Positions 1 to 16,487 are shown, counted from the first letter of the stretch. The stretch is DNA of 20,000 bases from an uncultured virus (IMG/VR IMGVR_UViG_3300020037_002893) (IMGVR_UViG_3300020037_002893); one strand, 5' to 3'. Numbers and translations are program-made. The notes: generated by a model not told the origin, from the letters alone.

Positions 1-274
1 TGTAGAGGACGAGGAAATTCCGTCCATCCCGAACGAAGTGCGCTCCGCACTCCGCCCAGATGTTCCCGAGAAACTCGGGGTCTGTGGCCACGCGGCCACG
101 GCGGACGATTGCCGAGGCGTATTGCTCGGCGATGCCGACCATTGCTTCGCGGTCGGCGTTGAGTGGGAATCTTTCAATTCCCATCCACTGCTCCGCTCTA
201 CCGCCCTTGTCGGGCTTGGCGGTGGTGAATTTGACGAGGGCGTCTTTGGTCAGTTCTTGTGGTTTCCTTTTCAT
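1..274 (-). CDS. Hypothetical protein, runs off the window edge (MKRKPQELTKDALVKF...FLVLY); second cargo gene of promoter cassette 1
   Basis: Manual translation: ATG at 274 in a CTAAGCC-ATG context, open for 91 codons to the edge. Absent from the ORF track because it has no stop in the window. Confidence 0.75.
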   Translation of the reverse strand, partial: MKRKPQELTKDALVKFTTAKPDKGGRAEQWMGIERFPLNADREAMVGIAEQYASAIVRRGRVATDPEFLGNIWAECGAHFVRDGRNFLVLY

Positions 275-306
275 GGCTTAGTTTTGTTGGTGGTAACTCT
301 CCTGGA

Positions 307-654
307 TCAGTCGCAAAATCTGCGGGATTGGTAGTCGGTCTTGGCTGGCTTGCCAGCGGGGTATGTCACGTATCCGTAGATCGCGCACTCAATCGCCCGA
401 TGGTTTTTGGTGTGAAGGAGGGAGACAACGCGCAGCCCGTCAAAGACGAGGGGATCGGTGTCGCCAGCGGCACGCTTGATCGCTTCGTTGGCCGCGTCCT
501 TGTTGGGGTAGATGGCCATTGCGACCCCATCTTGCGCGTCGGCGCACGCTTGCTTATAATCGCCCTTGTCGTCGATGACGCCAATCGGGCAGGTGGTGCC
601 CTGTTCGCGGGCGCTGGTAATGATGTAACCGTAGTTGGCTGGGAATGTTTGCAT
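307..654 (-). CDS. Hypothetical protein, 115 aa; first cargo gene of promoter cassette 1
   Basis: ATG about 45 nt downstream of the predicted transcription start, after an A/C-rich leader. No recognisable family. Confidence 0.75.
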   Translation of the reverse strand: MQTFPANYGYIITSAREQGTTCPIGVIDDKGDYKQACADAQDGVAMAIYPNKDAANEAIKRAAGDTDPLVFDGLRVVSLLHTKNHRAIECAIYGYVTYPAGKPAKTDYQSRRFCD

Positions 655-703
655 TGTCGTGGTGGTTTGGAGGTTGTGGGGTTGCTTTCTTCTTTACGTT
701 TGG

Positions 704-732
704 AGATTAACCCTTTTTTTGCTAATGGTAAA
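704..732 (-). promoter_or_regulatory. Sigma70-type promoter, cassette 1
   Basis: -35 TTTACC (732-727), 17-bp spacer, -10 TAATCT (709-704); same layout in all three cassette copies. Confidence 0.8.
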
Positions 733-882
733 GCTAAAAGATGATATTTCGTGAAAAAAGTCTGGGAACCCAGTAAAATAAAGGGTTCCAGCGTGTTGGT
801 TTTAACTCTTTTTTGGCTCAACTAAGCCTAAAAACCCTAGCAAAAACGGTTAAAATGGCCCTTTTTGGCCGTATGTGAGCAC

Positions 883-916
883 AAAAAAGCCCTTCCGGGT
901 GATGGAGGGGCTTTTT
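883..916. terminator. Bidirectional-type intrinsic terminator
   Basis: AAAAAA-GCCCTTCC-loop-GGAGGGGC-TTTTT. Confidence 0.9.
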
Positions 917-936
917 AACCTGAATGTTGGCTTACA

Positions 937-954
937 TTTGCAAACGTTTTCAAA
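937..954. promoter_or_regulatory. 18-bp near-palindrome, copy 1 (operator-like)
   Basis: TTTGCAAACGTTTTCAAA; six copies in the window. Confidence 0.8.
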
Positions 955-956
955 TC

Positions 957-1193
957 TCACTGCGTTCCAGGAACCGGAGGGGATGCTTTCTCAGGTGGTG
1001 GGGTAAACTGCGGATCGTCTGTCCAGGTGTCTGGACTAACTATGATCCTGACATTCACCTGTGCCCAGTCATCGAACTCCTGCACGGATCGAAAGTAAAG
1101 AGGCAGAGTCACTGTCTTGCGTGGGACGATGGAGCAGGAAGCGGTGGCAATCGCAAAGCTTACTAGGATAAGACAGGATAGGAGGGTTTTCAT
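957..1193 (-). CDS. Small Pro-rich lipoprotein, 78 aa (possible o-spanin-like)
   Basis: Start re-called to ATG 1193 (ATGA overlap with the upstream stop). Signal peptide MKTLLSCLILVSFAIATAS-C with lipobox; Pro-rich C-terminus. Confidence 0.7.
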   Translation of the reverse strand: MKTLLSCLILVSFAIATASCSIVPRKTVTLPLYFRSVQEFDDWAQVNVRIIVSPDTWTDDPQFTPPPEKASPPVPGTQ

Positions 1194-1564
1194 TCTGGCA
1201 GGTTCTTCGGTTGGGAGTGGACGGATACTTGAGCAGGCGACAGGCGCACCCAGAAGAGTCGAGTCAGACGGAAGTGCGTTGGAGAGAATCTCTCCACGAA
1301 GGGGGAAGTCCAGAAGCAATGAAAGTCTTCCTCCTTTGCTGGCCCTCCCTCTTCGGATTCCTCAAGGGAGCGGACGTGGATGTGCCTGCCGTCCCACTCG
1401 TCAAACGTCTCCGCTTGAATCAACAGATGGCAGGAGTTGCCCACGTCGAGCAGGTGCCGAAGGATGGCCTCTGCCAAGCGTTCAAACTCCCTGCACCCAA
1501 GAGAACCCGAAAAAGGATACTTGCGGCTCGTCTGGTATCCCAGGAAGTCAGATGGCTTGTTCAT
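1190..1564 (-). CDS. Hypothetical protein, 124 aa
   Basis: Packs tightly between neighbouring minus-strand genes; its stop overlaps the next ATG. Confidence 0.7.
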   Translation of the reverse strand: MNKPSDFLGYQTSRKYPFSGSLGCREFERLAEAILRHLLDVGNSCHLLIQAETFDEWDGRHIHVRSLEESEEGGPAKEEDFHCFWTSPFVERFSPTHFRLTRLFWVRLSPAQVSVHSQPKNLPE

Positions 1565-1573
1565 TCGAGCTGG

Positions 1574-1663
1574 CTATTTTTTCGATGGAAGATGCAAGGC
1601 TACGAAGCCAGTGATGATGGCGACAACAAGCAGGGCGAAGGATACCTCCAGAAAATATTTCAT
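1574..1663 (-). CDS. Single-pass membrane microprotein, 29 aa (MKYFLEVSFALLVVAIITGFVALHLPSKK)
   Basis: Manual translation; ATGA overlap with the upstream stop at 1660-1662; one hydrophobic helix with a basic tail; fills the intergenic gap. Confidence 0.7.
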   Translation of the reverse strand: MKYFLEVSFALLVVAIITGFVALHLPSKK

Positions 1664-2235
1664 GGCTTGAGTGCGATGGCAGTTTCAGAGTTGGTCTTGG
1701 CAAGAGCCACCTTCGTTCCCTCACGGGTGACAGTGACTCGCTCGTTGGCTCCCACCTTGGCAAGTCCGAGAGTCTCGTTGTGTCCTGCGATCTTGTCGGC
1801 CTTCCAAGCCCCGATTCCCTCCTTGAAGACGGCGCCGGTCACTACAGTTCTTACCACGCGCCAAGTCCACCCTCCGAGCGTGTCCGCCATCGTGGAGTGA
1901 TCCACGGTGCCCTGTATTTTGAGCTTACCCACCTCCAGCGCCGGAGGGGCCTGCACGTTCTCAACAGCGACCATCATATCCTTGTTGACGTATCCTCCCC
2001 CGAGTATGGGGAGGCCCCCGTTCGTGGCCGAGTTGGAGTCTCCGACATGGCTGGTAGTGACTCCGATGTTACCCATCGTCGAGAAGGCGATAGTCTGGTT
2101 GCCCGTATTGGGGTCGAACTCCTTATAGCTTGTGCATCCAGATAGCGCCATCAGCAGCCAGAGGAGCAAGCAACACAGGCAGATGAAGCGAATGTAAGCC
2201 CCCATGATCTTATCAGTTTGATCGCGTGAGTTCAT
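1660..2235 (-). CDS. Putative lipoprotein, about 191 aa
   Basis: Hydrophobic stretch FICLCCLLLWLLMA followed by lipobox LSG-C. Start placed at ATG 2235, just after the upstream stop; 2205 is an alternative. Confidence 0.75.
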   Translation of the reverse strand: MNSRDQTDKIMGAYIRFICLCCLLLWLLMALSGCTSYKEFDPNTGNQTIAFSTMGNIGVTTSHVGDSNSATNGGLPILGGGYVNKDMMVAVENVQAPPALEVGKLKIQGTVDHSTMADTLGGWTWRVVRTVVTGAVFKEGIGAWKADKIAGHNETLGLAKVGANERVTVTREGTKVALAKTNSETAIALKP

Positions 2236-2240
2236 CTTAT

Positions 2241-2477
2241 TTAGAGAGGTTTGGCGACCTGACACGCTTTTTCCTGCTCTACAGCCGTGAGATACACCTC
2301 TTCAAGGGCGCCGATTTTCCTTGCCTCCGCCATGACTAGGGCGGCGACCAGGTCTATCTTGGAGGAAAGCGTGTCTCGCTGCTCCTGTAAGGTTTTCATG
2401 TCCTCGATGATGGAATCCCTTGTAGTGTTAGCTGCTTTGAGGCAGGCTTCCAGTTCTTCAACTTCTCTTCGGTTCAT
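2241..2477 (-). CDS. Small coiled-coil protein, 78 aa
   Basis: Heptad-like L/I/E/K pattern; collinear with its neighbours. Confidence 0.75.
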   Translation of the reverse strand: MNRREVEELEACLKAANTTRDSIIEDMKTLQEQRDTLSSKIDLVAALVMAEARKIGALEEVYLTAVEQEKACQVAKPL

Positions 2478-2513
2478 AGCGTAGTTTCTTTCTCTCTTTG
2501 GTTACTCGTAAAG

Positions 2514-3179
2514 TCATTTCCCGTAGTGCCTGCGCACCGGGATGCAGGCTTCCCCTTGTTCTTTGAGGAGTCTGTCCATGTCCTTGAAGGACAGAAAGCA
2601 TTCACCTCTATCGCCCCAACCCCTGCCCCATGAATTGTGGAGCTTGAACATGCCCATGCGGTGATTGTATCCGATGCAGAGAATGGCGTGACCTCCGGCG
2701 AGCTTGCCAGTGGGGCGGATCAGTCCTCCGGCACTCGGCTCGAACATCCCCTCATACCAGTTGACTCCCAGCACAGCCGGACCCTGGTGCCCCACCGCCA
2801 AGGCAAGATCGTCCACGCCGAAGGCCCAGCGGTATTCTCCATACCAGCCTCGCTCCTTCCCCGCCTTGATGGCTCCAAGAACGGAGGAGCCTTCGTAGTC
2901 CTCCCCTGCCCATTCGTCGAAATACTGAGCACGGTGGTATATCTCCCTAGCCAAGTCGTTGGACACTCCGGCAACCATCACCGGACGCGCCGCCGCCTCA
3001 TGCGCCACGGCAAACCCCGTGCAAGCTCCCTCTCGTCCTTGGTCCAGCCATACCGGACATCCCCAAGTGTAGGAGCGGGGTTTCAATGGCACGGCCCCGG
3101 AGCGTAAGACAGCCGTGATAGGGTAATTGCGTGAGCGTTCGTCGAAACGGGTAACGCGGTCGAAGGTTCTGTCTTGCAT
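2514..3179 (-). CDS. Papain-like (C1 family) cysteine peptidase
   Basis: DQGREGACTGF (oxyanion Gln and catalytic Cys), GGHAI (His), HNSWG (Asn). Confidence 0.9.
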   Translation of the reverse strand: MQDRTFDRVTRFDERSRNYPITAVLRSGAVPLKPRSYTWGCPVWLDQGREGACTGFAVAHEAAARPVMVAGVSNDLAREIYHRAQYFDEWAGEDYEGSSVLGAIKAGKERGWYGEYRWAFGVDDLALAVGHQGPAVLGVNWYEGMFEPSAGGLIRPTGKLAGGHAILCIGYNHRMGMFKLHNSWGRGWGDRGECFLSFKDMDRLLKEQGEACIPVRRHYGK

Positions 3180-3193
3180 ACTGTTATTTTTTT

Positions 3194-3793
3194 TTAGTCA
3201 GCGTGAATGGGAATCTCCTGCCCTAAAGCCCCGCGAAGAAGGGACAGCCCATTCCTTCGCTCGCTAAAATCCCCAGGGGTGAACTCGTTGGGGGGAATGT
3301 CCGAGTCAATAAGTCCAATATGCTGGTAAGCTGCTGCGACAAGTTCCGAGCAGAAGATGGACGATAGATCCGGGTGGTTTCTCCCTCCAGGACCGTCATA
3401 CGCTGCCTTGAGCAGCTCCCTCTCATGTTGCTCGTATGGCCTTCCAACGAAGTCCTTCCTCAACTGCATGAGGCGTGACACGTCAATATCGGTGATGCCT
3501 GCCCCGAGCAGTTGGCGAACTACTACCTTCTTTGCTGAGCGTATGCTCTCGCTCAAGGGGACGACACGAACACCCTTTGTAGGAAGTCCCGTATCCATGT
3601 CAACAAGGGGGGACAACGTCGTGGATTCCCAGATTGATAGGAAATCATACTCCAGCCGCAGGACCATCCCGATGTGGGAGTATTCGGAACGGGTAAAGAA
3701 TTTTATGCTCGCACTGATGATCCCCCTCCCGGAGAAGAGGACAAGGTCGCCTGTGTTGAGCGTGGCGCGAATGTCTGAATAAAGCTTCTGCAT
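3194..3793 (-). CDS. Permuted papain-like amidase, YaeF/YiiX (C92) type
   Basis: GDLVLFSG, YSHIG (His first) and C-terminal FCSELVAAAY (Cys), the permuted NlpC/P60 order. Confidence 0.9.
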   Translation of the reverse strand: MQKLYSDIRATLNTGDLVLFSGRGIISASIKFFTRSEYSHIGMVLRLEYDFLSIWESTTLSPLVDMDTGLPTKGVRVVPLSESIRSAKKVVVRQLLGAGITDIDVSRLMQLRKDFVGRPYEQHERELLKAAYDGPGGRNHPDLSSIFCSELVAAAYQHIGLIDSDIPPNEFTPGDFSERRNGLSLLRGALGQEIPIHAD

Positions 3794-3816
3794 CGTGAGT
3801 GTTGTTGATACGAGTC

Positions 3817-3845
3817 AGCCGGAGAAGGTTCTGCCCTCTCCGGCT
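3817..3845. other. Intergenic hairpin
   Basis: AGCCGGAGA...TCTCCGGCT, 9-bp perfect stem; no U-tract on the minus strand. Confidence 0.5.
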
Positions 3846-3890
3846 TTCTCGTCCTTCGTGGCCTCACGATACCACGCTATGTCTCCCCCT

Positions 3891-4097
3891 TCAAACGGGA
3901 AGAATTTTCTTGCGGTAATACGCCTTCGAGTTGGCGTTCATCCTGTCCATGCAGGGCTGGCAGCGTGACAGGACTTTGACGACCACCGTCCCATCTTTGA
4001 GTGTCCGCTCTTTTGTTGCAAGGGGATTTCCTCCTTTGCAACATCCGCAGATTCCCTTGGCTCGATTGTTTCGTTGGTGCTTTGCTTGTGGGGTCAT
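3891..4097 (-). CDS. Small basic putative zinc-binding protein, 68 aa
   Basis: CGCC and CQPC pairs; TAGGCC-ATG start 8 nt after the palindrome. Confidence 0.7.
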   Translation of the reverse strand: MTPQAKHQRNNRAKGICGCCKGGNPLATKERTLKDGTVVVKVLSRCQPCMDRMNANSKAYYRKKILPV

Positions 4098-4105
4098 GGC
4101 CTACG

Positions 4106-4122
4106 TTTGCAAACGTTTTCAA
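4106..4122. promoter_or_regulatory. 18-bp near-palindrome, copy 2 (17 of 18 match)
   Basis: TTTGCAAACGTTTTCAA. Confidence 0.8.
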
Positions 4123-4212
4123 CCATTGACTTCCAGGGCACGGCACCCGATGATCTGACCTGCGTCGTTGCGGACGAGGTCGGCAGGAGAGCCGATGTCC
4201 TTCCGGTGCGGG
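4119..4212 (-). pseudogene. 3' remnant of a small phage gene (..PHRKDIGSPADLVRNDAGQIIGCRALEVNG*)
   Basis: Manual translation. It resembles, from memory, the C-terminal R.D...P..LVR...G.IIGCR motif of a widespread small phage hypothetical family. No matching N-terminus was seen. Confidence 0.55.
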
Positions 4213-4446
4213 TCACTTCGTTTCCGGCATAGGAAACAGTGCGGCTGTGTAGGTGCCGCCGGATAAGTCGGGGCGGATTGCTACCGGATGATCGGACGTA
4301 AGCCCGAGTTCTGCTGGGCTGTAGTTGGCATGTGCCATGCCTGGCGGGTTGATCCCAGTGGTGTCGGCGTGAATATCGACGGGCTGCCCGTAGAACGGGT
4401 ATCCAGTGTTTTTCGTGGCGGGAGTGTGGATGGTTCCTACTTTCAT
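4213..4446 (-). CDS. Hypothetical protein, 77 aa (MKVGTIHTPATKNTGYPFYG...); cargo of cassette 2
   Basis: Start re-called to ATG 4446 behind an A/C-rich leader and GAGG-A-rich spacer; the ORF track starts at 4527. Confidence 0.7.
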   Translation of the reverse strand: MKVGTIHTPATKNTGYPFYGQPVDIHADTTGINPPGMAHANYSPAELGLTSDHPVAIRPDLSGGTYTAALFPMPETK

Positions 4447-4483
4447 TTTCTTTTTCCTCAGTTGGTTGGGGGTTGGGTGATTC

Positions 4484-4564
4484 TCAAAGGGAGGAGGACA
4501 GGTCGCGGAGAGCGGCCAGTTTGCCATCGTTGATGGAACGCTTGGTGTTGTTGTTCTCTTGCAT
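4484..4564 (-). CDS. Putative leaderless 26-aa ORF (MQENNNTKRSINDGKLAALRDLSSSL)
   Basis: ATG lies 6 nt after the -10 hexamer, at the expected +1. Confidence 0.45.
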   Translation of the reverse strand: MQENNNTKRSINDGKLAALRDLSSSL

Positions 4565-4570
4565 GGTTGG

Positions 4571-4599
4571 AGATTAAGCCTTTTTTGGAAAAAGGTAAA
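4571..4599 (-). promoter_or_regulatory. Sigma70-type promoter, cassette 2
   Basis: TTTACC (4599-4594)-N17-TAATCT (4576-4571). Confidence 0.8.
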
Positions 4600-4739
4600 G
4601 CTAAAATGTGATTTTTCGTGAAAAAAGTCTCCAATCCCAGCAAAATCAAGGGTTCCAGAGCCTTCGTTTTAACTCTTTTTTGGCTCAACTAAGCCTAAAA
4701 ACCACAGCAAAAACGGTTAAAATGGCCAATTTTGGGCAT

Positions 4740-4773
4740 AAAAAAGCCCCTCCGGGGGTTGGAGGGGCTTTTT
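4740..4773. terminator. Bidirectional-type intrinsic terminator after the endolysin
   Basis: AAAAAA-GCCCCTCC-loop-GGAGGGGC-TTTTT. Confidence 0.9.
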
Positions 4774-4793
4774 AACTCGATTGTTGGCCCTTA

Positions 4794-5645
4794 TCAGGAG
4801 GCCGTGGCAAGAAGAGCACGCAGGACAAGTCCAGCTCCGGTCTGTTGGCTGACTGCATTCGGGGAGTATCTGCTGTCTGCGGTATATTTACCTTTGATGT
4901 AAGCCGTGGACCCGCTCCAGAGGTAGGGGCTTGGCTTGCCTCTGTTGCGATAGCCGAGGCCGTTGTATCTCTCCAGCTCGTCCAAGGCGATTGCGATCCA
5001 CTCGTCGCTTCCTTCCTTGTATGCTGTCCACGGGATCTTGTCCATCTCGTCATATTTCAATGCGTCGATGGCAGACTCAAGCCAAGTGTAGACCCTCCCG
5101 TTGGCTGGAGGAGCCTTCGGCCTGCCTCTTGGCACTTGCTTGGTTCGACTGGTCAAGGGATCTCCGTTATGAAGGTGCTTGCTCCACCAGCCATCCGCTT
5201 CGAGCTGATGAATGATGCCTACCAACTGCCAAGGAACGCCAGTGGCTCGCTGCACTTCCGCATATCGCTCACGAAAGGTGAGGATCTCATCACGCTCTGC
5301 CTCGACCCTCTTCTTCCACTCCGGCTTTACCTTGGCCGTCTGGTAGACTTTCAAGAGGGAGAGCTGGGCATCGTCCAAGGGGGACTCATCAAGCAGGGCT
5401 TCCAACTTGGGGTCCAGCTTGTATCCCAGGGCCGCTGGCAGGAGCAGGAGGAACTCTCTCGTCACTCCTTGTCCTACCTTGCCTATATACCCGAGCTGGA
5501 GCCACGCCGAGTCTACTGCGGATGCTGTATTCTTCCCGTAGTCTCCATCCACTTTCAGCGATTGAGCGAAGGCCGTGTTGAGCAGCTTCTGGAGTGCTTC
5601 CACCTCCGGTCCTTGGCTTCCTCTTTTCAACGGTAGTTTTTTCAT
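4794..5645 (-). CDS. Endolysin: N-terminal peptidoglycan-binding domain plus lysozyme-family catalytic domain
   Basis: LKRGSQGPEVEALQKLLN...VDGDYGKNTASAV (PG-binding). VPWQLVGIIHQLE, HLHNGDPL, LERYNGLGY and SPYLWSGS..Y.KGKY are lysozyme-family motifs. Confidence 0.9.
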   Translation of the reverse strand: MKKLPLKRGSQGPEVEALQKLLNTAFAQSLKVDGDYGKNTASAVDSAWLQLGYIGKVGQGVTREFLLLLPAALGYKLDPKLEALLDESPLDDAQLSLLKVYQTAKVKPEWKKRVEAERDEILTFRERYAEVQRATGVPWQLVGIIHQLEADGWWSKHLHNGDPLTSRTKQVPRGRPKAPPANGRVYTWLESAIDALKYDEMDKIPWTAYKEGSDEWIAIALDELERYNGLGYRNRGKPSPYLWSGSTAYIKGKYTADSRYSPNAVSQQTGAGLVLRALLATAS

Positions 5646-6109
5646 GGGGATTTCGTATGGTTAGGCGGTGATGATGGGTGAAGGAAGTCGGCAGGCATAG
5701 GATCAAGCATTCGTGCAACGGATGTATGCAGGGCAGCGGCATCGTTGCGTTCCCGCATGACCTCCCGCTCATCGTTCAAGGCTGACAGGGCTTCCCGAAT
5801 ATCCTTGAAGGACTCCTTGATCTCTCCAACGTATTCCTCGCCCACGTTCAGGGCAGCACTCCTGCGGAGCTTGAGCAGCAGACGACTGACCTTGTAAAGG
5901 AAGACGGAGCCTATGGCCGCAAGCGAAAGATACTTGCTGTCCACTGTGCTGTTCAGCTCCGTGATTAGGGCTGCGACAATCATCAGCACGGCCAGCCAAA
6001 ATTCCGAAGTGGTGAACCCCCTCGCGTCAGCCATGTTGTCGGCTGCGGTGGATTTCTTCCTTGGTGTTGGTCGTCTCTTCTGGGGGGTCCGCTTCTTCGT
6101 CGTAGCCAT
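5642..6109 (-). CDS. Putative holin, two TM helices
   Basis: Basic N-terminus, GFTTSEFWL followed by two hydrophobic segments; ATGA-coupled to the endolysin. Confidence 0.7.
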   Translation of the reverse strand: MATTKKRTPQKRRPTPRKKSTAADNMADARGFTTSEFWLAVLMIVAALITELNSTVDSKYLSLAAIGSVFLYKVSRLLLKLRRSAALNVGEEYVGEIKESFKDIREALSALNDEREVMRERNDAAALHTSVARMLDPMPADFLHPSSPPNHTKSP

Positions 6110-6136
6110 GGGTGCTGCTCTCTATGTTGTTCCTCG

Positions 6137-6154
6137 TTTGAAAACGTTTGCAAA
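6137..6154. promoter_or_regulatory. 18-bp near-palindrome, copy 3 (opposite orientation)
   Basis: TTTGAAAACGTTTGCAAA, just upstream of the holin start. Confidence 0.8.
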
Positions 6155-6196
6155 TTCCCTATATAATCTCCTTCAAGGAGATGTTACGCATAGCAC

Positions 6197-6487
6197 TCAT
6201 ACTGGAACGGCTTCAATGTCGAGATCAGGAGTTCCAGCGAAGGAAGTGAGAACGAAGGACACCGCACAGCCACCAATAAGATGAACAATCTTCCTGGTGG
6301 CCGTAGTCACTGCGGTAAGACCCTCGAAGGGAATCCCTCGTTGGCTTACTGCCACAGAGCCGTCCGTTGCGAAGGTAGCGCCACCGGAGGGATCAATCAA
6401 CAAGTGATAGTAACCTGTCTTGGATGGTGTCCACGTCTTTGTTCCGTTTTCTGAGAACGTGTCAATGAAAGTGAGTGAGTTCGCCAT
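6197..6487 (-). CDS. Small beta-rich hypothetical protein, 96 aa, possibly virion-associated
   Basis: T/G/S-rich composition; located between the tail fibre and lysis genes. Confidence 0.75.
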   Translation of the reverse strand: MANSLTFIDTFSENGTKTWTPSKTGYYHLLIDPSGGATFATDGSVAVSQRGIPFEGLTAVTTATRKIVHLIGGCAVSFVLTSFAGTPDLDIEAVPV

Positions 6488-6581
6488 AGTGAAAGTTTAC
6501 GGGAAAAACATGTTCGGTCAACATCTATGCTGGCCCGTGGCCTGGAATTTGATCTCGAAGTGGGTAGACATGGCGGCAATG

Positions 6582-7004
6582 TTAGTCTTTCAGGGCGGCG
6601 AAAGCGGATGCAAATTGCTGCTTAACCTGGGCAAAGGCGCTCGCCTGCTCAGTCGTGTAGCCGCTTGGCGGGACGGCATAGCGGATCATCGCTGAGGCGG
6701 CTTCATCGTCCCCGGCGTCAAGCAAGGCATTCGCGGCGGCGAATAGCGGTTGGAACGGACCTCGAATTCACGCCGGGAGCCCGTCCCATTGTTCGCGCAT
6801 CGCGGCGCGTTTGGTTGTCCTCAACAAGGCCCTTGCATTTTGCTCCTCGATCTCAGCAAACCATGCTAGAATTTGTGCCGCACTAGGGATCGGCCTCGGA
6901 TCTCGCCAAGTTTGCCGGAGCATGGCGTAGTCCGCGCAGTTGCCCTAGTCTGCTCCTGACATCCCGTGGTCTAATCCAAGTGAAAGCTTGTCTTGTGTTG
7001 TCAT
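6582..7004 (-). pseudogene. Tail-fibre-coupled gene (putative fibre chaperone), 140 codons, interrupted by TAG (6945-6947) and TGA (6768-6770)
   Basis: ATGA overlap with the fibre stop. One frame with no frameshift: MTTQDKLSLGLDHGMSGAD*GNCADYAMLRQTWRDPRPIPSAAQILAWFAE...QWDGLPA*IRGPFQPLF...FAALKD-TAA. Confidence 0.8.
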
Positions 7005-10000
7005 GTGAATTTGTGGATTACTACCCTTGAATATACCTCTATCACCCCAAAACTTGACGCCGGCCCGAAGCCAGTTGTCGCGTTAGTCGTCTCACACCGG
7101 TGCCGGAGCTCAAACGCCTTCGTGCCACCAATGGTCAGCACGACGGATACGGTCGCGTTGGTGGATGCGGCCGGCACGCCAGAGCAATAGCAGGACTGTC
7201 CATAGGCGGCGTAGGAGCTATCAGTCACGTTATAGATCGCCGCCTTGTGGCGGTTGACGTAGAAGCCAGGCGCCTCGGCATAAATCAAATAAGTCCCAGC
7301 CGACAGAGTGAATTGGTTGGATGCAATTGAGACGATGCCAGCCGCATCGCTGACCTCTGTATTGAGGTTGCGTGTCCGCCAAGCGCCTGAGGTAAATGTT
7401 CCGCCGTCGGTCCCGTTCGACTTCTGATCCTCAATAACCGCCATGGCGGAGTATAGGCCTCCGCCGATTTTACTGAGCAGCACCTTCTTTTCGATCCCGG
7501 CGCTGGCGTCATACGAACGCACGTAGTCAGCCGCGAGGTCCGGTGAGCTGTCCGCCGTGAGCGTCGAGATATTGCCGCCCGGCAGCAGGAAAGAATGGTA
7601 AACCGACGCATTTACCTGGACGAGCAACAGCGTATCGCCCGGAGCACCGGTAGAGATTGGCCCGACAATCGTGGATCCCGATGCCGAGAGCGTAACTTGA
7701 CCACTGGTGCCGCGATGAAGCAGAAACCATTGGTCGAAATCTGTCGCAGCATTCGCGCCGACCGTGATCGTGCAGCCGCTCGAATTACTGAAAAGGACGT
7801 TCTTGTTGGCCTCGGCGGAATTAAGTGTGTAGGTGCTGCCAGTCTTGGTCGCGGAGCCGCTGACGCCACCGCTCGACCCCGCCGCGCCGGTGGCTCCCTT
7901 CTCGGCGATGACATCCCAGTTGGCCGTTCCGGTGGCGGGATCCACAGAGGAGGACGGGTCATTGGCCGTGCAGACGTAGCTGCCCCCCCCATACGTCACG
8001 ATGTCGCCGATGACGTAGCTGGTGCCGCCCACATAGGCGCCCTGGTATTGGTTCACGAAATTCCCATCCGCACCGGCGGCGCCTGTCCCGGTGGCGCCCG
8101 TCGCTCCCGTTGCGCCCTTGTAGTTTTTCCAAAGACCTGAGAAGTCGCCCGCCGATGGGCTGAGGATCTCGGTGTCCGTGCTCAGCACCGCGATGTAGTC
8201 GAGGCCGGCGTCGAAAGTCGTGGTGAACCCTGTGCCGCTTCCGTCGGAGGCATAGGCGATGTAGCAATACGCGCTCGGCCCGCCACCTCCGCCGCCAGTG
8301 GTGCCACTCAAGGCAAGCCAGACGGAGTTTTCGTCATCCCAGACAAAGAGAGCATATTTGGAAAGGCTATCGAGGGTGATGTCCGTGTCTCCCCAGCACT
8401 TGATGTTCCCAGTTCCGTGCTTGATGACCACCGCCCGAGCCGCGTTGTTGGCGCGGAGATAGGCAACCTTCCAAGAGGCGCCACCGCTCACGGCATCCAG
8501 GTCATCAGAAGCCGCGTTTGCCTCGGTGTCCACTGAATGGAAAGATGACGTGACGGTGATCGACCCTGTGGCGATGGTCTTCTCAGAGAAGCTGGACTCC
8601 GTTGGGGTCCGCATCAGCTTCCAGACCTTCGCGTTGGTCGAGCCGTCATAGTCGTCTGGACGGATTACCAAAGGTGCTGACTCAGCATCTGTCCCGGCTT
8701 CAAGGACATACACTGCGTATCGTTCGTTGTCCCCATCGTAGATGAAGACTGCCCTCTTGGGCGTGATGTCCACTGTCACGACACTGTCCAAGTCGGAGGA
8801 GGTTCCACCCGTCAACGAGGTGATCGCTTTCAGGTGATGGATGATGAGGCCATCAACAGTCGTGGCGTCATAGTAATCCGAGAGAGGAAGAGGAGCCAAC
8901 GTGGAGATCCCAAGCAAGCCGTTCTTTAGCACGACGGGCTCATGCAATAGCTTAGTTCTGTAAGATACCCCGTCCTGCGCTAGTGCCTCCACCTCAAAGA
9001 TGGCATCCAGGGTGTTCAGTCCATAGAGCAGAGCCTCGGCAGAGGTGGTAGCGAAGTTGATCGTGGCCCTCACGCCTTCCAGCCAGACAAGGGCGGAATC
9101 ATCCACTGTGACCATTATTGCCGTATTGGCAAGGTCTTCCCGGAAGGACAAACGAAGGTCTCCCCCTCCAGCTCCCTCGACGATGACATTGCCAGTGCCC
9201 ACATTGCTAAGCTTCTCCAGGATGCCTGTCACCTCAAGAGCGGTGGCACTCCACGGGATTCCCTCCGATGTGATGTAGCCTCCCCCTGTGTCCACTCCGA
9301 GAGAGTAGACGCCACCGATGCAGTCCTCGCTGAACTTGACCTCTACGACTGCGTTGGCATCCGTTCCCCCTGCTCCGTTCTGTGTCTTGGTAAAGGTGAA
9401 GCCGGAAGTCTCCGCAGACCAGTCGGTGAAGTTATACGCAACCGAGCTTTCCACGCGCACCTTCGTCCCGTGCGCGGTCGCCCTATACCCGGCGAGGCTG
9501 TCCAGCTTGGTGGCCAGTGCAGCGGCTACGTCAACGGCATTGTCTCCCGTCACGATGGATAGGATCTCGGTTGACTGTGTAGCCGTCAATGCTGTGCCGG
9601 AAGGTGCGGCAGTGCCAGAGATGTTGAACCACACTGAGCGTGAAATCTCACCCCCTGCTCCATCCGTTTCCCAGAGGAGGAGATGCTTCCCGTTCAGGGT
9701 GCTGTCCGCTCCGTTTACCACCACAGTTGCTCCTGTCAAAGGAGAATCCCCCGCGTTGAGGTCTGCGACAGCTCCTGCGGTATTCTGCGTGACGTGAACC
9801 TCCGTTCCGGAGGCGACTGTCGTGAAGGGTGTCTTGGCATGGATGCTGGACGCAATAAGCGTGGCCATGTCCATCGCGGTGGCGTCCGGCTCGTAACCAG
9901 TAATGAGAGTTAGGTCAGAGGTAAGGGCGAGCGCACCAGCGGGAGGAGGCGTATCACCATCTTGGGAAAACCAGAAGCCAACGATGGCCCCTGTAGACGC

Positions 10001-11104
10001 CGCATAAAGGTAGAAGTAAGTTCCATCGTAATTGTCTGTCGAGGCTCCAGAGGTAACGGTGGCAGGCGTGAAGCCGGAGCTTCCTGCCGCTGCTGCTCCG
10101 TGCGCTCCCACGGTCGAATAGGTGACAGTGACCACTGCCCCGAGGACAGTTGCCGAGAACTTCAAGTCAGCATCGACGGCAGCCTTTACCTTTTGGGCAA
10201 CTGCCCCATCGGAGTCGTTGGTGTTAATCGTGGTGATCTCTACGAAGCGATCATACACTGCTGCCCCACCGGGGATCGTGGTGCCTGAGTTATCCGTGTC
10301 GATCCAGAAGGCAACACTCCCCTCATCGTCATAGAGGACGAAGTATTTCCCATCAAGGGAGTCAGACACGTCGGCGACAGTGGTGATCGAGGCGACGTGT
10401 TTAACTCCTCCCACCGCAACGCATGTTGCTTCTTCGACCTGTGCAATCGCGGCGGTGTCCCCAACGCAGGTAATCTCCACTATCTCCCTTGTCGCCTTGT
10501 TCCCCGTGGCACGCACGCTGACGGTCGCCGCTCCTGCGGGGATGGGGATGACGGAAGTGACCAGCCCCGCTGGACTTCTTTGCATCCTTGCCACGACTAC
10601 CTCTTTGATGCCTGTTGCTCCTTCCTTCTCCATTGAGAAGCTCACGGAGGATTCAGGAATGAGGTTAACCTCGTCCGATCCGAAGTCACTCTTGGCTCCG
10701 GCAGTCACCCAGGAAATGCGGTATCCTCTCTCGTAGTTGCCCGACACAGTCACCCCACCGTCCGATGTTACATCAGCCATGGCGTTCAGGGCAGTTGACC
10801 AGTCATCCGCCGTGGCATCGAAGGAGAGAGCGGCACTGGTGGAGGCTCCATAGGTCACCTTGAAGTCTCCCAGCTCCGGGGGTGTATTGACTACCCCCGC
10901 ACCGATGCGGAAGCTGTCATCCTTATAGCTTCTATCCAGCTCCCAGAACACGGAGCCAGCCTCCACCCGCTTGATGGGGACAACATCCACGATAAGCTTC
11001 TCTCCCGTGATGATAGGGCGGATGCTACCCAGCGAAGTGGATTGAGGAGAAGCGATGAGCTGCTGCTCCAGTGCGTTTACGAAGAGGCGAAGCTGGCGAG
11101 ACAT
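7001..11104 (-). CDS. Mosaic tail fibre / receptor-binding protein, about 1367 aa
   Basis: G/A/S/T-rich with internal domain repeats, collagen-like GAT triplets, a Y.IGDIVTYGG.SYVC module and a beta-rich tip. Start placed at ATG 11104 (MSRQLRLF) rather than TTG 11137. Confidence 0.85.
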   Translation of the reverse strand: MSRQLRLFVNALEQQLIASPQSTSLGSIRPIITGEKLIVDVVPIKRVEAGSVFWELDRSYKDDSFRIGAGVVNTPPELGDFKVTYGASTSAALSFDATADDWSTALNAMADVTSDGGVTVSGNYERGYRISWVTAGAKSDFGSDEVNLIPESSVSFSMEKEGATGIKEVVVARMQRSPAGLVTSVIPIPAGAATVSVRATGNKATREIVEITCVGDTAAIAQVEEATCVAVGGVKHVASITTVADVSDSLDGKYFVLYDDEGSVAFWIDTDNSGTTIPGGAAVYDRFVEITTINTNDSDGAVAQKVKAAVDADLKFSATVLGAVVTVTYSTVGAHGAAAAGSSGFTPATVTSGASTDNYDGTYFYLYAASTGAIVGFWFSQDGDTPPPAGALALTSDLTLITGYEPDATAMDMATLIASSIHAKTPFTTVASGTEVHVTQNTAGAVADLNAGDSPLTGATVVVNGADSTLNGKHLLLWETDGAGGEISRSVWFNISGTAAPSGTALTATQSTEILSIVTGDNAVDVAAALATKLDSLAGYRATAHGTKVRVESSVAYNFTDWSAETSGFTFTKTQNGAGGTDANAVVEVKFSEDCIGGVYSLGVDTGGGYITSEGIPWSATALEVTGILEKLSNVGTGNVIVEGAGGGDLRLSFREDLANTAIMVTVDDSALVWLEGVRATINFATTSAEALLYGLNTLDAIFEVEALAQDGVSYRTKLLHEPVVLKNGLLGISTLAPLPLSDYYDATTVDGLIIHHLKAITSLTGGTSSDLDSVVTVDITPKRAVFIYDGDNERYAVYVLEAGTDAESAPLVIRPDDYDGSTNAKVWKLMRTPTESSFSEKTIATGSITVTSSFHSVDTEANAASDDLDAVSGGASWKVAYLRANNAARAVVIKHGTGNIKCWGDTDITLDSLSKYALFVWDDENSVWLALSGTTGGGGGGPSAYCYIAYASDGSGTGFTTTFDAGLDYIAVLSTDTEILSPSAGDFSGLWKNYKGATGATGATGTGAAGADGNFVNQYQGAYVGGTSYVIGDIVTYGGGSYVCTANDPSSSVDPATGTANWDVIAEKGATGAAGSSGGVSGSATKTGSTYTLNSAEANKNVLFSNSSGCTITVGANAATDFDQWFLLHRGTSGQVTLSASGSTIVGPISTGAPGDTLLLVQVNASVYHSFLLPGGNISTLTADSSPDLAADYVRSYDASAGIEKKVLLSKIGGGLYSAMAVIEDQKSNGTDGGTFTSGAWRTRNLNTEVSDAAGIVSIASNQFTLSAGTYLIYAEAPGFYVNRHKAAIYNVTDSSYAAYGQSCYCSGVPAASTNATVSVVLTIGGTKAFELRHRCETTNATTGFGPASSFGVIEVYSRVVIHKFT

Positions 11105-11173
11105 GCCGCAACGTTCCACGATTTCGTGGTGACGCAAGGGGATCTCTTATCGTTTTTACTTGGCCTTTCTTAC

Positions 11174-11191
11174 TTTGCAAACGTTTTCAAA
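11174..11191. promoter_or_regulatory. 18-bp near-palindrome, copy 4
   Basis: TTTGCAAACGTTTTCAAA. Confidence 0.8.
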
Positions 11192-11198
11192 CAGACAC

Positions 11199-11229
11199 AA
11201 AAAAGCCCCTCCGGTGGGGGGAGGGGCTT
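11199..11229 (-). terminator. Intrinsic terminator closing the cassette 3 transcript
   Basis: AAGCCCCTCC/GGAGGGGCTT stem with a U-tract on the minus strand; stem nearly identical to those at 883 and 4740. Confidence 0.9.
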
Positions 11230-11258
11230 AGTTGAATGAGGTTGGAGGAGGGGGGGGG

Positions 11259-11447
11259 TCAGAACTTGATGACCTCCCCCTCCAGGAGGCGTGGGTAACG
11301 CTCCCCCTTTACGGGGGTATAGCGTCCCACAAGGTATCCCCCTCTGACGAGGTGTCCCTTGACGAACTGCTTCTTCCCTTTGCACTTCTTGGAAAGGGAG
11401 GCGAGGGCCTTGTCGATGGCCCTATGGGTGTCGTCTGAAATATCCAT
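11259..11447 (-). CDS. Small basic hypothetical protein, 62 aa; sole cargo of cassette 3 (moron-like)
   Basis: TAAGCC-ATG start after an A/C-rich leader, lying between its own promoter and terminator. Confidence 0.75.
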   Translation of the reverse strand: MDISDDTHRAIDKALASLSKKCKGKKQFVKGHLVRGGYLVGRYTPVKGERYPRLLEGEVIKF

Positions 11448-11488
11448 GGCTTATTTTAGTTGGGGTTGGGGTTCTCTTAACTGGCTGG

Positions 11489-11517
11489 AGATTACTTCTT
11501 TTTTAGCTAAACGTAAA
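11489..11517 (-). promoter_or_regulatory. Sigma70-type promoter, cassette 3
   Basis: TTTACG (11517-11512)-N17-TAATCT (11494-11489). Confidence 0.8.
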
Positions 11518-11711
11518 GCTAAAATATGATATTTCCTGAAAAAGGGCTGGGAACCGAGTAAAATGAGGCTTCCCAGCCCCCTAGTTTTAACTCTTTTTTG
11601 CCCCAACTAAGCCTAAAAACACAGTAAAAAGCGTTAAAATGCCCCCTTTTCGGGCCTTGTGGGCACAAAAAGGCCTGTGTGTAGCTACATTCGGGGTTTA
11701 TCTGTGGTCAC

Positions 11712-11742
11712 AAAAAACCCCCTGCCAATGCAGGGGGTTTTT
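11712..11742. terminator. Bidirectional-type intrinsic terminator
   Basis: AAAAAA-CCCCCTGC-CAAT-GCAGGGGG-TTTTT. Confidence 0.9.
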
Positions 11743-11758
11743 AACTCGAATGCTAAGC

Positions 11759-12844
11759 CTACTTTGCAAACGTTTTCAAATCAGGGGCCGCAGGCTCCCC
11801 GGCTGTATGCTGTTGGAAAGGAAGGAAGGACTTTCTGAGATGTCCTTCCGTGTCGGAATTTGTTTCATGGCGAGCCATTACATGCACTGCTCCTGCCTTG
11901 GCATCCCGAATGACATGATCGCACGGACAATGCGGGATTGCACAAAGTCTCAGCCCTCTGGGAAACCACCTCCTCCAGATGATGAACAGATCCTCTGTGC
12001 CCTTGCCACCATATCCGGTGAAGTCGGCGGCTGCGATGGCTTCCCAGTTCATCAAGGTGCATCCGAACCCGCACCAGTCGATGGGGACAACAGCCCCCTT
12101 CCCCAGTGCTGGGTATGCGTAGTCGAACCATCCCCTCTGTCGCCAGCCATACTCTGCGATGAGCTTCCAGATATTGCCTCCGTGCTTCGGGGGGCAGGTC
12201 TTCTCCATTTCCTTGCGCCACTCATGCTCCTCCTCAAGAAGCTGTCCAATATCCTCCGTCTTTTCTTCCTTCGCCTTTTTGAGCTTATCCTGGATGGTAG
12301 CCCACTCCGCAAGCTTCTCTTCCGGGATCTCACGTTCGTCCATGTTAAAGTCCCTGTAGATCGTTTCAGTGGGCGAGCCGAAACCCCCCATGAAGCTCCC
12401 ACCCCCCTGTGAAGGGTAGGGGCAGAAGGCTATAGAGTAATAACCCCCATCGAAGCTAAGCATCTGTAGAGAGCAGAGGAGAGCATTGTCCGGGGGCAGG
12501 ACATCGGAGTCCAGCGACCACAGCCAGTCAGCGTCGAGTTCCCTCGCATGGTCGAACATCGCAGAGCGCATCTGGGCAATGACAAGCTGGGCCTCCTTCT
12601 TGTAGTTCTCCCCTTCCTTCCAATCGTGGATGATATGCCGGACTTCGATCCCTCGCAGAAGTCTACCCTCCTTGTTGGATATTTTACGGACTTCCTCATC
12701 ACCGATCAAGACAAGGGACACGCTTAGCTCCTCCCCTAGGGATCGTCGCATCTTGTAGACATTGCGACTGATCGCTCTAAAGAGGGCCGGTAGGGCGTAT
12801 GTGTAGTTTTTCGTGGCACAGGTTCCGATTACTAAGGTTTTCAT
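11759..12844 (-). CDS. GT-A fold (GT2-like) glycosyltransferase
   Basis: N-terminal beta strand, DWLWSLDSDVLPP (DxD motif), DWCGFGCTLM, TED and a CDH motif; carries a charged helical insertion. Confidence 0.75.
   Translation of the reverse strand: MKTLVIGTCATKNYTYALPALFRAISRNVYKMRRSLGEELSVSLVLIGDEEVRKISNKEGRLLRGIEVRHIIHDWKEGENYKKEAQLVIAQMRSAMFDHARELDADWLWSLDSDVLPPDNALLCSLQMLSFDGGYYSIAFCPYPSQGGGSFMGGFGSPTETIYRDFNMDEREIPEEKLAEWATIQDKLKKAKEEKTEDIGQLLEEEHEWRKEMEKTCPPKHGGNIWKLIAEYGWRQRGWFDYAYPALGKGAVVPIDWCGFGCTLMNWEAIAAADFTGYGGKGTEDLFIIWRRWFPRGLRLCAIPHCPCDHVIRDAKAGAVHVMARHETNSDTEGHLRKSFLPFQQHTAGEPAAPDLKTFAK
11763..11780. promoter_or_regulatory. 18-bp near-palindrome, copy 5 (overlaps the last codons of the glycosyltransferase)
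   Basis: TTTGCAAACGTTTTCAAA. Confidence 0.8.
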
Positions 12845-16469: not shown

Positions 16470-16487
16470 TTTGAAAACGTTTGCAAA
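16470..16487. promoter_or_regulatory. 18-bp near-palindrome, copy 6 (opposite orientation)
   Basis: TTTGAAAACGTTTGCAAA, 3 nt upstream of ATG 16466. Confidence 0.8.

Follow-up and report, generated by a model that had tools for sequence, protein, structure and literature searches.

Composite terminator–promoter cassettes in three copies beside small orphan genes in the tail and lysis region of an uncultured phage

We analysed a 20,000-nt stretch of the uncultured virus IMGVR_UViG_3300020037_002893 (hereafter the window, meaning the whole stretch), which comprises the tail and lysis region of a tailed phage with all credible genes on the minus strand. Within it we identified three copies of an intergenic cassette of 236–287 nt containing a terminator-like hairpin (T1), an A/T-rich block, a second hairpin and a promoter sequence. 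These copies are probably best explained as composite cassettes of the PeSL (promoter-early stem-loop) type. Under this explanation, T1 would end transcription arriving from upstream late genes, the A/T-rich and probably curved stretch together with hairpin 2 and its T-run would add insulation, and a sigma-70-type promoter, TTTAC(C/G)-N17-TAATCT, would restart transcription into whatever lies downstream. Because the cassette promoter belongs to a class found in a replication region, unmodified host RNA polymerase would transcribe small open reading frames (ORFs) without recognizable family (ORFans) located among or behind the tail and lysis genes, free of late-gene control. In copy 3, the cassette, a gene of 62 amino acids (aa) and that gene's own terminator would form a self-contained moron between a 361-aa gene and the tail-fibre gene, copies 1 and 2 would head longer units, and the repeated DNA along with a junction palindrome of 16–21 bp would mark where close strains gain, lose and replace the downstream genes (cargo).

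A repeat search of the window returned one repeat family, with three gap-free copies of 187 nt at 687–873, 4554–4740 (84 % identity) and 11472–11658 (75 %). The repeat itself is confirmed: recomputed by script, a gap-free core of 121 nt (701–821) was 85 % identical between copies 1 and 2 and 81 % identical between copies 1 and 3, exactly reproducing the values given in a first-pass annotation of the window. Past the downstream end (640–686) identity dropped to 43 % and 34 %, which is background, and cassette similarity stops ~15 nt beyond the −10 element. Upstream, gapped similarity reached 935, 4792 and 11761, ~20 nt before the first terminator, with a 10-nt indel (insertion or deletion) in copy 2 and a 42-column insertion in copy 3. 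The cassettes thus delimited measure 246, 236 and 287 nt, all on the minus strand, with a G+C content of 40–43 %; that of the genes of the genome is 54–60 %. Further copies were sought with a profile of the three copies, which matched the three window sites and an identical IMG/VR fragment (E 1e-82 to 1e-91) and nothing in 21 related loci (19 viral and two Planctomycetota metagenome-assembled genomes, MAGs). Around their 361-aa gene, the same 21 loci displayed no comparable intergenic repeats of their own. An exact pattern of the central block of the cassette gave zero matches in genome contigs and zero in metagenome contigs, and in viral contigs it returned only a 4,791-bp fragment identical to the window, the same single record being retrieved by a promoter-based pattern. 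The copy number is three within the ~65 kb of the lineage seen, with roughly 20 kb of the genome lying outside that.

Element coordinates bear out the minus-strand order originally proposed for all copies, namely terminator, A/T-tract block, hairpin and TTTAC(C/G)-N17-TAATCT. Cassette copy 1 (690–935) comprises T1 at 916–883, T-tracts at 857–827, a central block at 826–799, hairpin 2 at 791–762 with its T-run at 759–754, the −35 element TTTACC at 732–727 and the −10 element TAATCT at 709–704, with a predicted start near 697. Copy 2 (4557–4792) begins at the endolysin stop codon and comprises T1 at 4773–4740, T-tracts at 4724–4694, a central block at 4693–4666, a degenerate hairpin 2 at 4659–4630, a −35 at 4599–4594 and a −10 at 4576–4571, with a predicted start near 4564. 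In copy 3 (11475–11761), T1 lies at 11742–11712, the T-tracts at 11641–11612, the central block at 11611–11584, hairpin 2 at 11578–11545, the −35 element TTTACG at 11517–11512 and the −10 at 11494–11489, with a predicted start near 11482; an additional segment containing a small hairpin is inserted in this copy alone. The T1 hairpins are rich in G+C, preceded by an A-run and followed by a T6-run; they fold at −14.4, −22.3 and −22.6 kcal/mol and are predicted to be strong intrinsic terminators able to stop transcription; in copy 3 the stem letters differ and the hairpin is the same. Three phased T-tracts at 11-nt spacing are found in each cassette, followed by the 28-nt central block, which is identical in copies 1 and 2 and differs at 2 of 28 positions in copy 3. 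The region 799–860 is the most conserved part of the cassette, at 97 % identity between copies 1 and 2. What had been annotated as an A/T-tract block is present, and it also contains this near-invariant element resembling a second promoter. The hairpin described as shared holds for copies 1 and 3 (−12.6 and −18.1 kcal/mol with the T-run) but not for copy 2, where four uncompensated changes in the 3′ arm leave it degenerate (−4.1 kcal/mol); the T-run is present in all copies. A further 27 A/T-rich nt separate hairpin 2 from TTTAC(C/G)-N17-TAATCT, and the invariant letters of the cassette terminate at TAATCTCCA. A script scan found seven terminator-like sites on the coding strand of the window, six of which belong to cassettes or to cargo 3 (the three T1 hairpins, hairpin 2 of copies 1 and 3, and the terminator after cargo 3), the seventh being a weak site inside the tape-measure gene.

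The promoter was placed in a wider class with the aid of two further contigs. One, here L023, is a 4,791-bp contig that is 100 % identical to window 1–1934 and extends 2,857 nt past the left end of the window. The other, G001, is the 42-kb contig IMGVR_UViG_3300020049_004541, which was found by scanning IMG/VR for the 16-bp palindrome described below and encodes a DNA polymerase, a helicase, a UvsX-like recombinase, an exonuclease, methyltransferases, a terminase, a portal and a head protease. Comparison of G001 with the window proteins gave 0 matches at E≤1e-5 and the two gene contents are complementary, and a palindrome-plus-promoter unit in L023 is ~80 % identical to two such units of G001. 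Because of the shared regulatory motifs and the complementary gene content, we infer that G001 represents the other part of the same or a sister genome. The pattern TTTAC-N17/18-TAnnnT occurs four times in the window (once in each cassette, plus one intragenic site; 0.18 expected) and 12 times in G001 (0.66 expected). Eight of these 12 are intergenic, on the coding strand and directly before ORFs, and the other four fall within ORFs; in the L023 extension there are two matches, one intergenic before a GroES-like gene and one inside an ORF. All nine extra intergenic sites share an A-rich spacer and then GRGT, like the cassette promoters. At five of the nine (G001 15061, 16717, 20614 and 23276; L023:4171–4205) an ATG follows 5–7 nt past the −10, a geometry suggestive of leaderless mRNAs. 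Within G001 the eight sites all fall at 0.4–24.4 kb, among the DNA polymerase, helicase, recombinase and methyltransferase genes, and no site of the class was found at 24.4–42 kb, the part with the terminase, portal and protease. This confinement to the replication part of G001, with none in the packaging and head part, points to an early or middle promoter class, and the cassettes would accordingly place a promoter of replication-region type into the late region. The pattern provides a usable promoter definition for this phage lineage.

The second recurrent motif is a 16-bp near-palindrome, TTGAAAACGTTTGCAA, with six exact copies in the window (938–953, 4107–4122, 6138–6153, 11175–11190, 11764–11779 and 16471–16486) against 0.01 expected. 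Across the ~65 kb of the lineage it totals 18 copies: the six of the window, one in the L023 extension and 11 in G001 (L085–L087), the sites in L023 being 982 and 4143; the scan of IMG/VR for it gave 36 loci. Every window copy lies at a gene boundary or overlaps a stop, with two at or just past the stop codon, and the motif occurs in both orientations. Six of the nine extra intergenic promoters have the palindrome 10–13 nt upstream of the −35, and it is also the crossover site of the copy-3 deletion described below. It resembles an operator at which a phage regulator might bind. Mycobacteriophages of cluster A, L5 among them, carry stoperators, many identical short repressor sites at gene boundaries. 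The motif described here is similar in consisting of exact repeats at gene boundaries, but differs in being nearly palindromic, in occurring in both orientations and in having six copies at a fixed 10–13 nt upstream of a −35. Its TTGAAA was considered as a −35 element and dropped, as no consistent −10 follows. A search of genome contigs with an 18-nt palindrome pattern yielded, among the 80 of 95 stretches listed, single matches in unrelated taxa and no clue to the host. A putative regulator gene of G001 (L085:9376–9870) ends inside one palindrome copy.

Downstream of each cassette lies a different ORFan on the minus strand. Cargo 1, of 115 aa (307–654), follows copy 1 and is itself followed by a 233-aa ORFan that begins at 274 and runs off the window; L023 continues the array with at least six more small ORFs without a family, and then a palindrome, a promoter and a GroES-like gene (PF00166, E 3e-8). 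Copy 2 is followed by cargo 2, annotated initially as two ORFs of 26 and 77 aa; these are in fact one 104-aa open frame at 4527–4213 with an internal ATG at 4446, the 77-aa start also being the choice of the gene caller of the protein database. Cargo 3 (62 aa, 11259–11447) follows copy 3 and is succeeded by a terminator at 11203–11229, whose likeness to T1 of copies 1 and 2 is 88 %; with it, the copy-3 unit is the only self-contained one of the three. Because no terminator was predicted between cargo 2 and T1 of copy 1, the copy-2 unit probably runs for ~3.6 kb up to that T1, taking in the C92 amidase and C1 peptidase genes, a 201-aa protein and a lipoprotein-like ORF. After cargo 1, no terminator was predicted within L023 as far as it was read. 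The initial view was that each cassette drives different orphan genes; a single insulated orphan gene is predicted for copy 3 alone, copy 2 probably heading a ~3.6-kb unit with peptidases and copy 1 a long ORFan array.

The cargo proteins are mutually unrelated, as originally noted: no pair among the three reaches E<1. Each has one or two relatives in a database of 5.8 billion sequences, including gap-free homologues of the 115-aa protein at 60 % identity and of the 62-aa protein at 89 %, and judging by its gap-free homologue cargo 1 is a real gene. None of the cargo proteins belongs to a Pfam, PHROG or PADLOC family, PADLOC gave no credible match for any of 14 proteins, and the best score of a protein-atlas look-up with cargo 1 was 0.82, below the meaningful level. 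Their G+C content at third codon positions (0.64–0.75) fits that of the backbone genes, so the cargo does not appear compositionally foreign. The three ORFans are candidates for early-expressed accessory functions; the anti-defence or host-takeover role suggested for them in the first-pass annotation is hypothetical. Within the array after copy 1, a 73-nt stretch at window 222–294 is 100 % identical to L023:3555–3627; it consists of a 20-nt leader and the first 18 codons (MKRKPQELTKDALVKFTT) and heads two otherwise different ORFs of 233 and 75 aa, and a contig joint at 224 reported below lies at the edge of this duplicate. In the regions 2320–2978 and 3268–3327 of L023, adjacent ORFs of 126 and 93 aa share the motif …IATTMTT… as if paralogues, and the leader of a 71-aa ORF resembles that of cargo 1.

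Strain variation at the three sites was examined by aligning to the window, at ≥80 % likeness, metagenome contigs from DNA runs of three studies (X1, X5 and X7) and from one RNA library (X20). The X20 data are contigs with 17 of 30 bins thinly covered, giving no resolution of starts, ends or strand, and may hold DNA. Depth dips at 1–667, 4003–4669 and 11340–12006 were not used alone; only contigs joining across a site were counted. Flanking genes were covered at 95–99 % likeness, while all three cargo sites vary among these near-identical strains. At cargo 1, an X7 contig joins 224 to 686, skipping the gene, with 20 other letters between (side 45 letters), and contigs of both X5 and X7 depart from the cassette exactly at 686 and continue for 132–145 nt in unrelated sequence, whose consensus is the same in the two runs. 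This break, 686/687, is the downstream edge of the cassette and was seen in two runs from two studies. At cargo 2, most of the gene and one palindrome are bypassed in an X20 contig that connects 4104 with 4490 through 27 letters (side 64). The clearest case is a 589-bp module on the minus strand (11171–11759) comprising cassette 3, cargo 3, its terminator and one palindrome, which is absent from strains of both X5 and X7: one contig of X5 runs from 11170 straight into 11760 (side 77), with 21 letters fitting both sides that correspond to the palindrome and its flank, and an X7 loose end at 11760 reads ten letters of 11161–11170, the same junction. The module is bounded by 21-bp direct repeats. 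Joints at 959→6135, 802→4562 and 872→4813 were set aside as unreliable, with sides of 22–30 letters in repeats. We attribute these strain indels to recombination, as the likely cause. In such near-identical strains each cargo is either absent or exchanged for other sequence.

Synteny with related phages adds to the picture at the copy-3 site. In L003, L009, L015 and L020 a fibre gene follows the homologue of the 361-aa gene directly or after ~135 nt. In L002 the junction is occupied by a different, 258-aa ORF (L002:7313–8089) with its own TTGACA-type promoter-like site, and it is empty in L003, a close relative of L002. Because related phages have nothing or another ORF there, the site is, by comparison of these sequences, a recurrent insertion point, and the 620-nt insert of the window has, in its predicted elements, the classical moron layout. 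Three predicted terminators precede the fibre gene in the window, against none in the X5 and X7 strains. Either this gene has a promoter of its own, possibly tied to the palindrome at 11175–11190, or late transcription would have to resist the terminators.

Two published accounts describe the PeSLs of T4-type phages as combining strong early sigma-70-like promoters and terminator stem-loops, conserved over ~100 bp beside ORFans, and as mediating indels and mini-circles (Arbiol, Comeau et al. 2010, PMC2839356; Comeau, Arbiol and Krisch 2014, PMC4122927). The principle that repeated terminator–promoter cassettes allow small genes to be added, dropped and swapped without disturbing operons has thus already been published. 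The cassettes described here are alike in pairing a terminator stem-loop and an A/T-rich stretch with a sigma-70-like promoter of early class (here by sequence), in having several conserved copies per genome (here three, 75–84 % over 187 nt), in their ORFan neighbours, in the indels of close relatives at or beside them and in the insulation of inserted genes (here predicted). They differ in being 236–287 nt long, more than twice the ~100 bp of PeSL conservation, in the additional elements ahead of the promoter (hairpin 2, the three phased T-tracts and the near-invariant central block that resembles a promoter), and in lying in or after tail and lysis genes, whereas PeSLs lie in early hyperplastic regions. 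The phage also differs: over the 65 kb seen, T4 core genes are lacking and a tape-measure gene is present; its gene set (tape measure, terminase, portal and family-A-like DNA polymerase) is not that of a T4-type myovirus. For this reason, and because megablast and tblastn found no close isolate, we say only that the cassettes may work like PeSLs and do not claim membership of that lineage. Read in this way, the PeSL idea would extend beyond T4-type myoviruses to an uncultured long-tailed phage of siphovirus type from wastewater and freshwater metagenomes, accompanied by strain-level evidence of cargo turnover at all three sites. Morons of lambdoid phages are genes that bring a promoter and a terminator of their own and interrupt the late region between two genes; according to one of these accounts, they are not thought to move via conserved flanking sequences (PMC2839356). 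Copy 3 resembles a moron in sitting between genes that are direct neighbours in related phages and in two of the metagenome strains, with its own promoter (11517–11489) and its own terminator (11229–11203), both predicted. The cassettes differ from morons in the repeated nature of the regulatory part and in the 21-bp repeat that flanks the module, and copies 1 and 2 also in that no terminator directly follows the cargo.

The first-pass annotation had interpreted the repeats as a reusable expression platform that insulates captured genes, and in design this appears largely right: the promoter class, the terminators, the ORFan cargo and its turnover are consistent with it, but only copy 3 has the form of a single insulated gene. 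Several points weigh against the PeSL-type explanation. Starts and stops are predicted from sequence, and the activity of the promoters and terminators is accordingly an inferred one. The early timing is drawn solely from where the promoter class sits in G001, a contig that has no protein in common with the window, so that the lineage link rests on motifs and gene content. The −10 element TAATCT matches TATAAT at only three of six positions. The clean deletion of copy 3 recombined in the 21-bp palindrome repeat and not in cassette homology, and the contigs leaving at 686 may represent additional cassettes at other places in the genome, not alleles of copy 1. Recombination of one cassette with another would depend on two weak joints, 802→4562 and 872→4813, whose sides measure just 25 and 30 letters. 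Finally, the explanation assigns no role to what is conserved best in the cassette, the T-tracts and the 28-nt central block, and hairpin 2 is broken in copy 2.

Alternatively, the copies could be ordinary fixed regulatory regions, one terminator–promoter region having been duplicated twice within this phage to serve three units, with the cargo variation reflecting general plasticity of accessory regions and the repeats having no role in gene exchange. We regard this as unlikely, if a serious alternative. It is in keeping with there being only three copies and none in the 21 related loci, genome contigs or metagenome contigs, with the multi-gene units, including lysis-type peptidases, behind copies 1 and 2, and with the cleanest indel using the palindrome repeat and not the cassette; it does not, however, account well for a breakpoint seen in two runs of two studies exactly at the cassette edge 686/687, nor for all three cargo sites varying among near-identical strains with flanks 95–99 % alike. 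Insertion, three times over, of a small non-autonomous mobile element, similar to a miniature inverted-repeat transposable element, would explain three dispersed intergenic copies of similar length. Yet reading both ends by eye (with no formal test) revealed no terminal inverted repeats, on which ground this reading was rejected, and there are no target-site duplications around the cassette proper, the orientation relative to genes is the same throughout, and the 21-bp direct repeats at locus 3 enclose cassette, cargo and terminator and are copies of the six-site motif. Such an element is extremely improbable.

The central block, the main feature setting the cassettes apart from a plain terminator–promoter pair, calls for separate consideration. 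It shares the A6-GAGT-TA grammar of the class promoters, and in copies 1 and 2 the distance from it down to the corresponding element of the real promoter is exactly 95 nt. The T-tracts directly precede it, at the place of an UP element. The conserved upstream half could then be a gene or a cis-acting RNA, with a central-block promoter CTTAGT-N16-TAAAAC making a ~40-nt hairpin RNA that ends at hairpin 2 and its T-run. It would serve either as a small RNA or as a terminator close to the promoter that is passed only when a phage antiterminator is present, in the manner of lambda PR′-tR′. The conservation of 799–860, the T-tracts 11 nt apart just upstream and the T-run after hairpin 2 in all copies are also compatible with an RNA, but the putative −10, TAAAAC, lacks the final T present in 12 of 12 other class promoters, hairpin 2 is degenerate in copy 2, the RNAalifold covariation term over the upstream half is positive (+2.34) and thus gives no support, and Rfam returned nothing at gathering score, its best hits (E 0.084 and 0.16) being on the opposite strand and at chance level. 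We give an RNA of this kind very little chance. A decidedly unlikely arrangement is a two-part plug-in system, in which the palindrome would act both as operator of the early promoters and as universal linker for the insertion or deletion of modules, and the ~240-bp cassette as a portable insulated expression unit, with integron-like capture by homologous recombination in a siphovirus. If true, an attenuator hairpin flanked by tandem promoter-like elements, set 95 bp or nine helical turns from each other, would make cargo expression regulated and not constitutive. With these alternatives considered, composite PeSL-type cassettes remain our preferred explanation.

Taken in transcription order, the genes of the window, all on the minus strand, begin with a tape measure protein (18807–16504; PF10145, E 9e-42). 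Tail proteins follow it, the last being a 750-aa protein (15131–12879), and then the 361-aa protein (12844–11759) upstream of the copy-3 site, the tail fibre (11137–7001) after the copy-3 module, a 155-aa protein (6109–5642), an endolysin-like protein with a peptidoglycan-binding domain (5645–4794), a C92 amidase (3793–3194) and a C1 peptidase (3179–2514; phrog_16701, E 1e-60), downstream of which are the 201-aa protein and the lipoprotein-like ORF. The C92 amidase and C1 peptidase (2514–3793), both of cysteine-peptidase type, sit downstream of the endolysin behind cassette 2 and are a possible second lysis unit; relatives of the C1 peptidase in actinobacteriophages carry the annotation lysin or peptidase. 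Two long stretches are without a convincing gene, 6488–7000 (513 nt, after the fibre) and 3794–4212 (419 nt, after cargo 2), the latter containing one palindrome and a doubtful 68-aa ORF whose ATG lies 9 nt past the palindrome.

Megablast of the window against 50,697 phage records gave no match, and tblastn searches with two proteins, the C1 peptidase and one from G001, returned nothing closer than distant actinophage matches at ≤53 % identity. The 361-aa protein has relatives in 19 IMG/VR contigs (36–54 % identity) and in the two Planctomycetota MAGs, which are the sole pointer to a host and no stronger than a hint, and the endolysin has just two relatives, both weak. The window stretch 2500–12400 shares 17–47 % of sampled 31-mers with 19 DNA runs and 6 % with one RNA run; these runs derive from 13 studies of wastewater, freshwater, groundwater and sediment. 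No tRNA genes were found in the window, and a Shine–Dalgarno sequence was present at none of the 22 minus-strand start sites listed for the window and none of the 10 listed for L023. Many start sites have CC ahead of the ATG and C/A-rich leaders.

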